19,848 nucleotides of DNA from an uncultured Deferribacteres bacterium (GTDB taxonomy: Bacteria; Zhuqueibacterota; Zhuqueibacteria; Zhuqueibacterales; Geothermadaptataceae). The stretch spans positions 1 to 19,848 of the forward strand of contig CAXHAT010000151.1 in NCBI GenBank assembly GCA_964014485.1, in the 5' to 3' direction. Of this stretch, positions 6,001 to 15,000 are shown one piece after another (position 1 is the first letter of the stretch; each line of letters starts with the position of its first letter). Position numbers: made by a program.

Positions 6001-9000
6001 AGCAGATTGAGCAACGGCGCTTGGCAAATCGAATTGCAAGAGCGTGAGCAAAACACGTCGGAATTGGAAATTCTCGCTCGCGATTTACGTCATCCCGGAG
6101 CGCCTTTGCGGTCTTTTGAATATTTGAGCGGCGGTGAAAAGTTTCGCGTTGCGATTAGCATTGCCGTCGCCATCGGCCAAGCGGTCTCCGGCGGGCGAAC
6201 GGTCGAAACGCTCATTATCGACGAAGGGTTTGGGGCGTTGGACGAAGTCAATCGCAGCTTACTCGTGCAGGAATTGCATCGTTTAAGCGAACAAGTGTTG
6301 AAGGGAGGACGCGTCATTGTCGTTTCGCACCAGGACGACGTGTGTGACGAATTCGGCAGTCGTATCCGGCTCAATCGCGAAGGCAGCGGCGGCGTTTCCG
6401 TGGAGCGTTCGTTTTAACCAAGATTTTTTTTGGGGGGGGAGGTATTCGCGTTTATTTCCAATCACGCGAAATCGACGATACGGCGCTGGACGTATGCTCT
6501 GGCCCAGGCGTCAGCGGTCAGGATAGTTTCGAGGTCTTCGGTCGGAGAAGTTTGGTGGGTTTGCAGCGCTTCATCGACGAGTTGGGGGATTTGGATGAAA
6601 CCGATTTTCCTATCCAGAAACGCGTAAACGGCTTCTTCATTGGCCGCGTTTAAGACAGCCGGCGCCGTTCCGCCGACCTGCAGCGTTTGGAAGGCGAGCT
6701 TGAGGGAACGAAATTTTTCCAAATCCGGCTCGAAGAATGTCAATTGATTGAATTTCACAAAATCCATACGCGGCAGCGAATTTGGCAAACGTTCGGGATA
6801 AGTCAACGCGTATTGAATCGGCAGCCGCATGTCGGGCAGGCCAAGCTGCGCCTTGATCGAGCTGTCCGAGAATTCAACCATCGAATGAATGATCGATTGC
6901 GGGTGAATCAAGACGGAAATCTGGTCTGCGGTGACGTCAAAAAGCCAGAACGCCTCGATGACTTCCAGCCCTTTATTCATCAGCGTCGCCGAGTCGATGG
7001 TTATTTTTTTGCCCATCGCCCAATTGGGGTGCCGCAGCGCACGCTCAACGGTCACTTCTCGAAATTCTTCTTTGGGTAATTCACGAAACGGCCCGCCTGA
7101 AGCGGTCAAAATCAACCTTTCGACGTCACTTTCCTTTTCGCCGACGACGCACTGCCACAGAGCGCTGTGCTCGCTGTCGATCGGGATCAAGCGCGCATTG
7201 TTTGCTTGCACTAGAGTGGTGACCAAGCGTCCCCCGGCAACGAGCGTTTCCTTATTCGCCAGAGCAATGGTTTTACCGTTTTTCGCCGCTGCAATCGTCG
7301 GCTTTAGCCCCGCCGCGCCAACGACGGCGTTCACGAGAATATCGTAGTCGTTCTCTCCGGCAAGCGCTTCAAGAACGTCAGCGCCCACGAGCAATTCCAC
7401 GCCAATTTCACGAAAACGAGCAAACCATTCGGTTGCGACATTTTCGCTGACGAGAGCGGCTCTATCGGGTTTGCACTGCTTCGAAAGCTCGAATAAAGAT
7501 TCAATATTCGAATAGGCGGCGACTGATTTTATCAGAAACTTTTCCTCGAATCGCCGCACAATATCAATACAATTTTTCCCGATAGAGCCTGTTGCTCCAA
7601 GAAGGCAGATCGATTTCATTTTATCTGATGGAGAATGTGGCGCCCGCAGTCACGTTCTGAAATTCGCCAAAATTATATTCGGCGTTGATTTTGAAAACGG
7701 ACAAGTTCAGCGTTGCGCCAAGCGTCGTGTGCGTGCTTGAACCGTCAAATGCGGCGGTGAAGCCGTCAGGGAGGAAACTCTCAATGGGTGCAATTTGGAT
7801 GGTCAGATCGGTTCTGTCGTAGCCATAGCCCAAGTAGAACGTCAGCATGGAAATGTCCTGGCTTATGAAGCCTTTCAAACTCAAAACAGAAACGTCGCCA
7901 AAGTCAAAATCTTCCGGGACGATGAGGACTTGGTAGCCTGCAAGCAGTACAATGTTGGGGCGATTCGGATTTTGCACGAGGCCGTACTTCAAAGCGCCGC
8001 CGATGAGCGTCACTTCTTCTCGCAGCGGGCGTTCGCCGACTGGATAATGAAAGCATCGCGCGTTCACTTCCAGATTGCCCGGAAGTCCAAGGCTTGCCGT
8101 AATGAACGGGTAGCCAAGAACGTCTTCATTGTCGAACGGGCCCAATGGCACGTCTGGATCCGGCAAATCACCGATCAAATTGCCGAACTCGTCGGGAACA
8201 ATGGCAGCCGGGAATCTGACGCCTACATCGAATCCGCCGAGCTTGTGAACTCGCGCCGTGTTCACAAACCCGGCCCCGCCGATCGAGCCAAAGAAACCAA
8301 GAATGGGCTCGGCCAGCATTTGCACCTGTTCTTCAATGTTCCCAGGCCCGATGAACGGGTCTAAATCAAATACCTGCGCACCCGCTTTCCCGGTTGCCAG
8401 CGCGAATGTTGCCGTTAAAACCAAAACACTTTTCACAATCGACTTTTTCATAAAGTACTCCTCTTTAGAGGGTGGCTAGTTTCCCCGTCAAAAAGCCGGG
8501 GGCGTTGAGAAATGTTTCAGTAAACCAAGGGAGTGGAGATGGAGAAAGAATTTTGTCGGGTTAAGTTCTGTCGATAATCGCGGCGGCAAGCTCTGCTTCC
8601 GTCGTCAGTTTCCCGTCGACGAATGCTTTGCCGTGCATTTTGCAAATGCTGCGTCGGAATTTAAGCATTTCAACTTCAAATCTAATTTGGTCGCCCGGGA
8701 TGACAGGCTTACGAAATTTCACTTTGTCCATTCCGGTAAAGAGAACGAGCTTTTCCTTCGGATTATCCGTTGCGTGCATCAACATCGAGCCTCCCACTTG
8801 CGCCATCGCTTCAACAATCAAGACGCCCGGCATAATCGGGCGGCCAGGGAAATGTCCGACAAAAAAGGGTTCGTTAATCGTCACATTTTTTATCCCGACG
8901 ACGCGTTTCATTGGAATCATTTCGATGATTCTGTCTACAAGCAAAAACGGATACCGGTGCGGCAGGATTTCAGACAAAGCTTGAGCATCCAAAATGACTC

Positions 9001-12000: not shown

Positions 12001-15000
12001 GGAATTCTTCAACTTTAATCGTAATTTCAATTCCCGAGTCGCCAACTTCGCGGTCAATGACGATTTGCACGTCTGAGAAGAAGCCGAGCTCCCACAGCGT
12101 TCGAATTGCATTTTGAACGTCGTCCCCGGTTACTGTAGCGCCTTCGGTCAGGCCGGAATGTATGCGGATAACGTTATCATTAAAAGTAGACGCGCCTTCT
12201 ACTTTAACGCCAAGCAATGTCGCTTTGCGCGCGGCAGGGTTTTGCGCAAGAGCGGCGGCTGGCAGAGCCATGACAGCAAAAAAAAGCGCTAAGTATCTAA
12301 TAAATCTATACATGCTTAAACTTTCCATATTCTGAAAAAACGCGCTCAAAGTACAAATCCCTTTATATAATGTAAAGAAAAATTCCCGGCTCATTAAAAT
12401 GGAAAAGAATGCCGCAGCCAAATGCGCTTGTCCTCTTTCCAGGGCGACGCAAGAGCGTTATTGTAGTCGTATTGCATTTGCAGAAGCAACGACGGATTAA
12501 TGCGAAATTCGAACCCCAGTGTATGCCTAAACCCAATATTTGGCGTTTCCAAAGTATTATAAACCGGCCAAGTGTCAATCTGCCCGGTATAGAGAAAATA
12601 CATTCTATTTGACAAATATTTTCCCAAGGTCACTTTCGAGCTGCGAAATATCGTCAGCGCCAAATCCAAATCTGTTCTGCTGTTATCATTGATTTCGAGA
12701 AAATTTCTGGTAAATCTCGAATGAAGACGAACGACGTCTAAACCAAGCGAACTTCTCAATTTGCGTTCAACAGGGCGCAACAGGTTCCGGAAAACGATTC
12801 GCTCCGTATTCATCGTGAGAAATTCCGTCGCCTGTTCGCGAATATCATCGAGATTGTTGAATTTAACGCCCAAGATCGAGAGCAAGTTCACTTTTGAATA
12901 ATTATAATATTGATTATCCGATTCGATCTCCAAATAAACGTCTTCAAGCCTGGCTCTTTGCTTGAGCGCGCCGGTTTCAGGGTCACGCGCCAAGAGTTTC
13001 AAATAAACATGATCGGAACGTTCGAGCGTATCGTTGTAAATGGTCGTCCATGCCGTCCCATTCAAAATCGGCTCCAACGAACTCCGATCCCACGCCGCGC
13101 TAAATTTGTCTATTCTGAAATCGAGATCAAAATACTCAATCGTTCCGCGCGTCGATTCGACCTGGCCGGCAATGCGAAAAGAGCTTGTATCATCTTCAAC
13201 AAGTTGCTTCCTGATCTCCTTCCAACGAGACGTGTAAGCGTCTTGCACTTCTAACATGTCGCCTCGGCCGTTAGCCGGTCGTTGAATCACGTGGCCGTTC
13301 GTTTGATTCGAGCCGCTCTTTGCCGCCAAATCTTTTTCAACTTCGAGAGGAACGAATGTCGAAGTGTCGCGAACGACGCCAGTGAAATGGAGACGACTAA
13401 CGGCGTCGTTTAGCCCTAGGTTCACATAAAAATTGCTTATCCCGTATTTGAGCTCTTTAACATATCTGTTATCCTTCCCGGCTATGGCCGCAACGTCCCA
13501 ATCGGCGTTCATCAATATATTCAGGATAACCGCGTTCGATGAATCACTAGATTCAATGAACGGGTAGGTTAAATCAACTTTATTTAAAACAACATCGCCG
13601 CGGAAAACAGGATGCCCCCAAGGCCCGGCAATAAAAAAGCCCGGTTCGTCTCTTGTGATTTGCTCTTCATCAGACGGAAGCGCCGTCCCGTTTGCCGCCG
13701 CCTTGCTTCTTCCTTTGAAATGAAAGTTGCCAACTTCACCGGGTTGCATAAGCCCGGGAATATATAGCGGCACTCCTCCAGGCTCTGAATTAAGCTGAAG
13801 CGTCCCCAAACTCATCCAATCGCGGTTTAAAATGAGCGGCGCGCCCAGATTGCCCCGTCTGACCGGCGCATACTCGTAATTCGTTAGCGACAGCTTCTTT
13901 CCCCCGATTTTTCCATCCAGTTTTACGATTTCGACAAAGCGACCGCGGGTAACGAGCTTGGCTTCAATATCCGTTATCTTGTCGGCAACTTGATTTAAAT
14001 GAATGCGCCCGTTTGAAATGTTCAGTTGCGAGTCCATGAGACGCATTCGCTTGTACGGCCCGCCAAGCTTAAGATCCAACTCGCCGTACCCGTACGTTTG
14101 CGTAACGTTTTGCGTAAAATCAGAAAGCGTCGAAAGAAAATCGCCGCTGCCTTTAAGCTCGATTCTCGCCGAATCCTGTTTATTCAAGGGAAAAACGCCG
14201 CTGCCTCGCATGACATACTTTTTAGATTTTCTGAACGTAATGCCGCCGACACGCCAGCCGTCATCGCTCAGAAAAGAATGGCCATTATTTTCATCGCCGA
14301 GGTCAAATCGAAGTTCATCAAAACTAAACCATAGCGCCTGTCCGTCACGTACATTGACGCTGCCGTAAGTTGCAAGCGGCCACTTGTCGCCTCTCAATTT
14401 GATATCAACATCAGCTCTCCCCAAAACGACGCTGTCCCGCGTCGAAAGGGTAAAGAGAAGATGGTTAATATCGATGTTTTGACCTGAAAGCGTAAAATCG
14501 ATCTTGCGCGGCGAGTTGGTAATTTCCCCGCTCAACGCAAGGAAGGGCTGTTGGCTTTCATTGATTAAAAACCTGTCGAGTCGAAAGCCCTTTCTATCGA
14601 TGTTCGCGGACAATACAACGTCGTATATTCCTGCGCCTTTGTAATAGCCGTTAAAAATGCCGCCGTCAATTTCCGCAACCGGTTCTCGCAGCTTCCCGCT
14701 CAGTTTAACCTTGCCGAAAGCGCGTCCCGTGACGATTTTAAGCCCGGTCGAATCATCAATCGTCGAAATTTCTTCAAGCTCAAGGTCTTGAAGGTTGATT
14801 TCGCCGTCAACATTTTGCCCTCCAACCAACTCAACCTTCGCCTGACCAGTGACCCACTTGCCGTCGCCGATACGATAGATATTCAACAATTTTTCATCAT
14901 AAGAAGCGGCAAAGCTCGTGGAAAGCATTTCATTCCGCTCGGGGTAAAGACTCAGCTTTCCTGTCACGGAACCGGTGTTTTTACCGTTTTCTTTAAGCTC

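Follow-up and report, generated by a model that had tools for sequence, protein, structure and literature searches.

The gene content of G000, the genome of an uncultured marine bacterium of KSB1 (Zhuqueibacterota), supports a true loss of lipopolysaccharide (LPS), which normally coats Gram-negative cells, in a lineage that stayed diderm. We put at about 60% the probability that its envelope is Sphingomonas-like, i.e. that its Lpt system would carry a sphingolipid. An earlier survey of the genome had claimed that the lipid A genes were absent, and this absence proved wider than stated, extending to the Kdo genes, the GT9 core transferases and the MsbA-like flippase. The outer membrane was kept, as the survey had also concluded: BamA, TamB, Skp and receptors were found, the latter as 50 TonB-receptor-like ORFs.

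Profiles built from the LpxA, LpxC, LpxD, LpxB, LpxK, KdtA, KdsA, KdsB, KdsD, LpxL and DUF374 proteins of relatives were searched against the 165,389 six-frame ORFs of G000, and no orthologue of any of them was found. The ten best residual matches were classified as sugar acetyltransferases, gamma carbonic anhydrase, PseF, GT4, DAHP synthase, a CBS protein and IMP dehydrogenase; one LpxL-family paralogue is still present. GT9 core transferases gave 0 matches, versus 5-9 in each of 12 LPS-bearing genomes. The MsbA-like flippase, assigned in relatives by position and best score (498-584 bits, under the 602 cut-off), is absent. With lipid A, KdtA, Kdo, GT9 core and MsbA all missing, G000 falls outside the Kdo-lipid A (Raetz) pathway. 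The O-antigen ligase family PF04932 was uninformative, with 4-9 matches in all 5 genomes compared. Among the 28 other genomes of the order, LpxC was found in 27 and LpxB in 25, the same counts as in the survey, and KdtA in 25. A homology search is blind to non-homologous enzymes, and with the LpxL-family paralogue left one might imagine a lipid A-like molecule still made by unrelated replacement enzymes. We consider this extremely unlikely, as the flippase, the core transferases and the genes to make, activate and transfer Kdo are also missing, and the hexapeptide proteins that remain fall into other families.

One of the former sites lies in the window, by which we mean the whole 19,848-nucleotide stretch analysed (contig C151). 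In G009, the LPS-bearing sister genome used as reference for gene order, the order is uppS-tamB-bamA-skp-lpxD-lpxC/fabZ-lpxA-DUF6588-dxr, and the flanking genes follow each other in the same way in G000, all on the minus strand. The upstream side consists of uppS (16901..17737; TIGR00055), head of a conserved envelope operon, tamB (12394..16776; PF04357), bamA (9986..12421; TIGR03303 above cut-off and Pfam, five POTRA domains and an Omp85 barrel) and the flank proper, the periplasmic chaperone gene skp (OmpH, 9295..9915; PF03938). The true start of bamA is probably near 12316, and that of skp near 9870, where similarity to relatives begins. A spacer of 245 bp (9050..9294), one less than reported, stands where lpxD and the LpxC half of the fusion used to be, and is followed by a stand-alone FabZ gene (8561..9049; 162 aa, TIGR01750 above cut-off) and by a 109-bp spacer at the former lpxA site (8452..8560). 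Both spacers are unique in the genome, and traces of LpxD and LpxC in the first, or of LpxA in the second, did not rise above shuffles. The downstream flank is formed by the DUF6588 gene (7621..8451; PF20230 and synteny), which in LPS-bearing relatives is placed after lpxA, directly or past a lipoate-ligase-like gene, and by dxr (6462..7619; TIGR00243/NF009114 above cut-off, position conserved in relatives). The 47-74% identity given for the flanks does not extend to TamB, which is 37% identical to that of the sister; BamA is 68% identical between G000 and the nearest LPS-bearing genome.

The G000 FabZ aligns to positions 305-462 of the fusion model NF009667 and shares 75% identity with the FabZ half of the G009 fusion. 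It is a remnant of the ancestral LpxC-FabZ fusion, namely the C-terminal half. Its unique changes are 2-3.5 times those of G009, and a faint, marginal trace of the linker is left at its N-terminus (score reached by 40 of 1000 shuffles). Apart from this trace the survey's term "scar-free" holds; six spacers, searched for pseudogene remnants of the genes formerly there, gave none above shuffles. The loss can be called recent, as had been proposed, in a relative sense only: no pseudogene remains were found, and the nearest LPS-bearing genome belongs to another genus.

Flanks of former sites adjoin inside contigs at four ancestral sites: C151, lytR_C-recQ on C57 (confirming the survey), gatC-pyrG on C36, and a small ORF next to ridA on C161, a junction which corresponds to the place of the MsbA-like gene in the genome G013. 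The lpxB site is rearranged. On C36 pyrG ends, and on C444 lptC begins, in register inside the same 226-bp repeat, overlapping by 12 nt; their join is inferred. An artefact, with the genes sitting on unassembled or unbinned contigs, might be suspected in so fragmented and shallow a bin (465 contigs, N50 of 33 kb, word depth of about 5-7 in public run X1, adapter remnants at contig ends, the pyrG-lptC join), all the more as G009 is itself an incomplete bin without lpxB and kdtA. However, G009 lacks the genes flanking these two as well, whereas at four sites of G000 the flanks do adjoin inside contigs; for an artefact, all the lipid A, Kdo and GT9 genes would need to have been relocated and then missed; and 16 genomes of a second lineage carry the same skp-fabZ junction. 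An artefact is therefore highly improbable. As its lpxB and kdtA flanking genes are missing too, G009 was also rejected as a half-way stage of the loss. Positions 7983-9395 of the window, including both junctions, are spanned by one assembled contig of X1, which is not independent support because X1 may be the source sample of G000; runs X2 and X3 gave scattered coverage and, by the bridging rule applied, spanned neither junction.

The second lineage is a separate KSB1 family, hereafter f6 (17 genomes, 16 genera). Among 133 genomes of the phylum, LpxC and LpxB were both absent from 18, namely G000 and all 17 of f6. In the tree G000 is sister to LPS-bearing G009, outside f6, and a single clade of G000 and f6 was rejected by the AU test (p=2e-6; 19 of 30 rows kept, the other 11 omitted to save time or for want of markers, LG+G4 with a quick search). 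This rules out a single loss common to both, and on these alignments the loss in G000 is independent of that in f6. Fibrobacter succinogenes has been said to be an LPS-free precedent in the FCB group. It was set aside, since PMC6851124 lists its LpxB and treats the species as LPS-bearing.

The family f6 matches KSB1 clade IV of Li et al. 2022 (PMC9012183), a GTDB order formerly named CR04bin15, and two named records assigned to clade IV by membership or genus (L181, L184) likewise have skp-fabZ without lpx genes. In the available part of that paper, a single sentence states that clade IV is without lpxABCDKL and kdtA. For 15 clade IV genomes, its Table S7 gives lpxC-fabZ 0, kdsA 0, kdtA 0, msbA 0 and lpxB 1; lptF is listed for 14 of them and lptA for 12. 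The same part contains no synteny test, and its main text is without the words "sphingolipid" and "outer membrane". Since the absence was thus already in print for one KSB1 clade, as far as this source goes, the presentation of G000 as a first LPS-free FCB member is unsupported. G000 resembles clade IV in its phylum and in the gene set that is missing, but it is not a member, being sister to an LPS-bearing genome. Our literature search, which left most subscription journals out of scope, found LPS loss in KSB1 treated nowhere beyond PMC9012183. What is new here is the independence of the G000 loss, the canonical Lpt bridge and ceramide genes kept in both lineages, and an acidic residue in most f6 LptGs.

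LptA, B, C, D, E, F and G are all intact in G000, lptA reaching a contig end. The LptD barrel is recognised by PF19838; the zero matches of the survey came from the wrong family, PF04453. The sole LptFG pair (C181) is 48-57% identical to that of LPS-bearing relatives and is not near spt (C54, C175); no second pair was found in G000. LptF/G occur in 17/17 f6 genomes over 16 genera, LptE was not found in G075, and G000 keeps MlaD-type genes. On the G000 branch, the ratio of changes relative to the sister, a comparison of one pair that moves with the outgroup, was 0.6-0.8 for Spt and bCerS, 1.24 for Lpt and 1.43 for BamA/TamB/Skp, against 0.93 for other genes pooled. The outer membrane could be mostly a symmetric phospholipid and protein bilayer, with Lpt vestigial or serving a minor lipid such as a T9SS anchor. 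Acinetobacter, Neisseria and Moraxella survive as LPS-null mutants, and the somewhat faster change of Lpt proteins and the missing LptE of G075 point the same way. Yet seven Lpt genes stand intact while the lipid A, Kdo and core genes went without trace at several loci, and both the constancy of LptF/G in f6 and the retained MlaD genes also make this arrangement quite unlikely.

In Shigella LptG, the lipid A 1-phosphate is bound by R136, a position at which the substitution R136E is lethal (PMC6744409). The column aligned gap-free to R136 holds K in 22/22 LPS-bearing sequences and E/D in 15/17 f6 sequences. G000 keeps K there, and has a D to N change in the cavity, at the K34 column. Changes common to G000 and f6 were at chance level in LptG (4 observed, 4.0 expected), so no site-level convergence was found in it, nor was any in LptF (1 versus 0.28). 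An AlphaFold model of G000 LptG, made from a 3-row alignment, was set aside (pLDDT 59).

The G000 Spt scores highest with the family SerpalmtaseCFB (557 bits, below the NCBIfam cut-off of 640; KBL-type family 440), and its best PDB match is the serine palmitoyltransferase 3A2B (447 bits; cysteate acyltransferase 28EH, 255). The G000 bCerS matches at 37%, over the full length, a Roseomonas gene that occupies the cerS position in a sphingolipid locus of the Caulobacter type. A second spt/bCerS cluster is present in G000. The sphingolipid replacement put forward by the survey stays plausible with the full Lpt bridge kept, but spt-bCerS is ancestral and near-universal (bCerS in 128/133 phylum genomes) and thus not a response to LPS loss. 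Its presence in all 18 LPS-less genomes is for the same reason to be expected; all 5 bCerS-less genomes have LpxC, an association to which two loss events lend no statistical weight. The reported KDSR was not upheld. In G008 and in four f6 genomes spt has an epimerase-family SDR as its neighbour, and the sole G000 candidate, on C119, is 37-40% identical to this SDR and unlinked to spt. Two other lipids found no support, sulfonolipid (capnine), because no cysteate synthase passed the cut-off in G000 (TIGR03844 best 67 bits versus 325) and Spt scores far higher against SPT than against 28EH, and hopanoids (0 of 5 genomes).

A non-sphingolipid glycolipid, i.e. a glycosyl-diacylglycerol or an acylated, sulfated glycolipid, could instead fill the leaflet and be the Lpt cargo, as proposed for Borrelia, ceramides being minor. 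LptFG persists in the LpxC-free control genomes Thermus, Deinococcus and Thermotoga. A candidate membrane GT2, encoded near spt-bCerS in f6 and present in all 18 LPS-less genomes, is also found in four without bCerS, so its acceptor need not be ceramide. On C299 of G000, an LpxL-family acyltransferase adjoins GT8 and four sulfotransferases. We nevertheless regard this cargo as rather unlikely: the C299 cluster is known from G000 and not from f6; bCerS occurs in 17/17 f6 genomes, with spt adjoining in the six loci read, and spt-bCerS is intact, slow-evolving and backed by a second cluster in G000.

We thus return to the sphingolipid as the favoured cargo. After the split from the G009 lineage, the G000 lineage dropped the lipid A, Kdo, inner core and MsbA-like flippase genes at their ancestral sites, the fusion being cut down to FabZ, an enzyme required in fatty-acid synthesis, and f6 underwent the same loss independently. 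The set kept comprises intact LptA-G, BamA/TamB/Skp, MlaD-type genes, T9SS with PorU, and spt-bCerS. Spt and bCerS would make a ceramide backbone, to be reduced and given a polar head by further enzymes, the GT2 being one candidate. The lipid would cross the inner membrane via a flippase other than MsbA, as the LPS-less KSB1 genomes imply, and its delivery to the outer leaflet, where it would replace LPS, would fall to the single canonical LptB2FGC-LptA-LptDE bridge. Since the LPS-bearing ancestors already had ceramide synthesis, it would be a precondition that made LPS dispensable rather than a new acquisition. Tentatively, and with the odds somewhat against it, one may extend this to KSB1 as a whole: LPS-free outer membranes would have arisen at least twice (possibly three times), an unduplicated Lpt would bear a ceramide glycolipid without MsbA, the lipid A phosphate-binding site of LptG would have switched charge in the older lineage, and the same glycolipid would be the PorU acceptor anchoring hundreds of T9SS cargos.

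To our knowledge, natural LPS loss is rare in free-living diderms and mostly confined to old lineages without close LPS-bearing kin; we know of no close LPS-bearing sister of Borrelia burgdorferi, a host-dependent spirochaete. Here each of two independent losses has LPS-bearing sisters whose gene order matches, which allows a gene-by-gene comparison of the states before and after. B. burgdorferi is, like G000, an LPS-free diderm with an Lpt-orthologous bridge for another lipid, but the cargo proposed in the available part of PMC10353723 is non-ceramide glycolipids. In the Sphingomonas envelope glycosphingolipids take the place of LPS. Without LpxC, LpxB and WaaA, this genus keeps its Lpt system (bioRxiv 10.64898/2026.04.12.717747), and G000 resembles it in these absences, in a full Lpt (A-G) and in sphingolipid genes (Spt and bCerS homologues). 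However, G000 belongs to another phylum and has Bacteroidota-type Spt and T9SS; the sole LptFG of S. wittichii is of LptF2/G2 type within the sphingolipid locus, whereas that of G000 is of its LPS-bearing relatives' type, unlinked to spt. In lipid A-null Caulobacter crescentus (PMC9393093; bioRxiv 10.64898/2026.04.12.717747) sphingolipids also permit life without lipid A and LptF2/G2 are implicated in sphingolipid transport, but this is a laboratory state requiring fur inactivation and dedicated Lpt paralogues, whereas G000 carries a fixed natural deletion and no second LptFG pair. Whether the one canonical LptFG that sphingolipid producers possess is able to carry these lipids is a question that the same preprint does not settle. 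The LptFG of the LPS-less KSB1 genomes, together with the natural acidic residue at the R136 column in most f6 sequences, offers a direct test, because no other such pair and no LPS exist in them.

The survey's estimate of about 200 T9SS cargos agrees with the 203-228 ORFs that we found with a T9SS-type C-terminal domain. A PorU-family sortase lies above its curated cut-off in G000, with conserved GHG and Cys motifs, which hold the catalytic His and Cys. G000 thus resembles Porphyromonas gingivalis (PorU, A-LPS; PMC13086638) in having PorU and some 200 cargos with a C-terminal signal, but the acceptor there is a complete LPS with Kdo, which G000, having neither lipid A nor Kdo genes, is unable to make. 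If PorU still anchors its cargos, the acceptor in G000 must be a non-LPS glycolipid.

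We examined the site from which the lpx genes have disappeared. The window is contig C151 of an 8.4-Mb bin, G000 (465 contigs, rated 97% complete), and the relatives of its BamA among named records come from genomes of KSB1/Zhuqueibacterota, a phylum assigned to the FCB superphylum by Li et al. 2022 (PMC9012183). The gene order on the minus strand of the window is uppS-tamB-bamA-skp-fabZ-DUF6588-dxr. At the equivalent site in G009, the closest genome and an LPS-bearing sister, lpxD, an LpxC-FabZ fusion and lpxA are located between skp and DUF6588; G000 has instead only a 162-aa FabZ, set off by a 245-bp spacer on its skp side and one of 109 bp on its DUF6588 side. 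Both spacers are single-copy in G000, and no coding trace was found in either. The FabZ matches positions 305-462 of the LpxC-FabZ fusion model, its first 18 residues having only marginal likeness to the old fusion linker. A single contig of a public marine sequencing run (X1), which may be the source sample, covers both junctions. In most relatives lpxA is followed by a lipoate-ligase-like gene, which survives in the LPS-less family f6; it is absent from G000, where its site would be window 8452-8560, and from the equivalent site in G009. The window also contains a glycosidase of the GHL10 family that bears a T9SS signal, then sbcD-sbcC (151-6417), and a DUF4407 protein followed by a short tandem repeat up to the contig end (18256-19848).

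The survey's finding that the lipid A pathway is lost was borne out across the genome, and the loss of LPS in G000 is real and complete. By family searches, LpxC, LpxB and KdtA were not found, nor KdsA above cut-off, whereas 27, 25, 25 and 23 of the 28 other genomes of the order, respectively, have them. Using profiles from relatives' proteins, LpxA, LpxD, LpxK, KdsB, KdsD, DUF374 and an LpxL orthologue were also missing. Residual matches of the lipid A/Kdo profiles were ruled out as true orthologues, being members of other families, and one distant LpxL-family paralogue is left, on contig C299. G000 has no GT9 core transferase, whereas 12 LPS-bearing genomes have 5-9 apiece. Former flanks adjoin within contigs: lytR_C and recQ on C57, where relatives carry kdtA, and gatC and pyrG on C36, where they carry kdsB. 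On C161 a small ORF adjoins ridA, at the place of the best MsbA-like gene of G013, a genome of family f2; among 26 transporters compared, the clade of that gene had no member from G000 or G075. The lpxB-DUF374-lpxK block is gone, its two flanks lying mid-contig with other neighbours. G009 is without lpxB and kdtA and also without their flanks, which, unlike the pattern in G000, is the look of an incomplete bin.

In relatives, pyrG is followed by kdsA-kdsD and then lptC, with lpxL between kdsD and lptC in family f1, which holds G000 and G009. G000 has there a dispersed 226-bp repeat, inside which C36 ends and C444 (lptC-lptA) starts. These two ends overlap by 12 nt in register, as no other two of the 11 contig ends lying in the repeat do, and we infer that pyrG and lptC are joined across it. 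The repeat has 104 near-full copies among 230 matches (e.g. C36:1-145 and C444:1972-2063). Adapter-like tails at the ends of C27, C28, C57, C181 and C444, presumably sequencing-adapter sequence, are a sign of low-depth assembly. Two unpublished LPS-bearing genomes, G020 and G024, are counted in the tallies for the order and the phylum, and G020 was also used in the trees, the AU test and the LptF/LptG alignments; the conclusions, though not the counts, are independent of both.

Among 133 genomes of the phylum at least 85% complete, LpxC was missing in 22, LpxB in 22 and both in 18, namely G000 and all 17 genomes of f6 (16 genera); in the remaining misses, one of the two genes is present. Every f6 genome has a stand-alone FabZ, with skp upstream in 16 of the 17 (in G081 the contig starts 650 bp before fabZ), and gatC-pyrG-lptC-lptA-lptB is contiguous in the five examined. 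The lpxB flank, located in two of four, adjoins a response regulator in both. LptF/G and the bacterial ceramide synthase-like gene bCerS are kept in 17/17 and LptD in the two tested; a search for LptE in a single f6 genome found none. One or two GT9 genes persist in 16/17 despite the lack of Kdo-lipid A, and none in G000. Trees group G000 with G009 inside f1 with full support, and a single LPS-less clade of G000 and f6 was rejected by the AU test: the loss in G000 is a second, independent case within the phylum. The gene order of f6 recurs in named clade IV records, which group together apart from the window, so that f6 in all likelihood corresponds to clade IV of Li et al. 2022 (PMC9012183). 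The first case of LPS loss in KSB1 was noted there, but not interpreted in the text available, and the novelty claimed for an LPS-free FCB member is therefore not upheld. At the base of f6, the LPS-bearing G066 is placed, with low support, among G067, G080 and G081. G081, a bin with 9% contamination, has a stand-alone FabZ with the whole LpxC-FabZ linker and a K at the LptG column of Shigella R136. Given the position of G066, this linker and the K, G081 possibly represents a younger, third loss.

In sum, genes for synthesis, the core and the flippase have been lost, those for transport and ceramide have been kept, and this state has two origins. G000 has LptA, LptB, LptC, LptF, LptG, an LptD of the PF19838 type, LptE and MlaD genes, as well as about 50 TonB-receptor-like ORFs, 203-228 T9SS-type C-terminal domains and a PorU scoring above its cut-off. 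A large polysaccharide locus (C2:80000-118000) contains PseF and many sugar-pathway-like genes. In P. gingivalis, PorU attaches cargos to complete LPS, according to PMC13086638; as G000 makes none, any PorU acceptor must differ from it.

By analogy with Sphingomonas and Caulobacter, we propose, with a probability of about 0.6, that a ceramide-based lipid would fill the outer leaflet, delivered by the ordinary Lpt bridge. Of the Spt-bCerS-KDSR set previously claimed, the first two genes stood and the reductase, for which an SDR on C119 is a candidate, was not established; the proposed sphingolipid replacement of LPS is unproven. On C54, Spt, nearest to the CFB Spt family and a solved SPT and distant from cysteate acyltransferase, adjoins a 374-aa GNAT protein (bCerS) matching over its full length the cerS-position gene of a Caulobacter-type sphingolipid locus. 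The pair is in synteny in the LPS-bearing G009, G008 and G013, and bCerS-like genes occur in 128 of the 133 genomes, which makes the pathway older than the loss of LPS. The main rival, that the outer leaflet and Lpt cargo is another glycolipid, appears rather unlikely; its possible locus is C299:200-6967, where a PF03279 lipid A acyltransferase-family gene precedes a GT8 and four sulfotransferases, a content suggestive of an acylated, sulfated glycolipid that might substitute for LPS. For the ceramide-based lipid, a candidate head-group enzyme is a membrane GT2 (on C56 in G000) present in 42/133 genomes, including all 18 LPS-less ones; absences carry little weight here, since no more than 11 candidates per genome were scored. 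Its holders fall almost all within the five families to which the two LPS-less lineages belong, and four bCerS-less genomes have it too.

A second set of spt-like and bCerS-like genes lies at C175:8698-16467. The same stretch encodes a saccharopine-dehydrogenase-like reductase and two radical SAM enzymes, of which one has the tetraether synthase Tes as its best match. In each f6 genome, by comparison, bCerS gave a single match. Four f1 genomes (G002, G003, G004, G006) are without bCerS and keep their LPS genes, a reverse loss in the same family.

The KSB1 LptG profile aligns gap-free with Shigella LptG across the first 136 residues, columns 31, 34 and 133 corresponding to K34, D37 and R136, which touch lipid A, R136E being lethal (PMC6744409). 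In 22 LPS-bearing KSB1 sequences these columns are invariantly D, E and K. All 17 f6 sequences have G at column 34, and at column 133 an acidic residue (E or D) stands in 15 of them, Q in one and K in one, which fits a changed cargo. G000 keeps E and K at columns 34 and 133 and has N at column 31, a weak sign of such a change, and LptG changes shared by G000 and f6 were at chance level. For the single pair G000:G009, with rough alignments, unique changes were 285:229 in Lpt, 314:219 in BamA/TamB/Skp and 440:472 in other genes, and fewer in G000 than in G009 for Spt and bCerS. Many f2 genomes encode, besides the canonical pair, a third, longer LptF/LptG-family protein (~640-775 aa; e.g. G013:C42:46753-47922).
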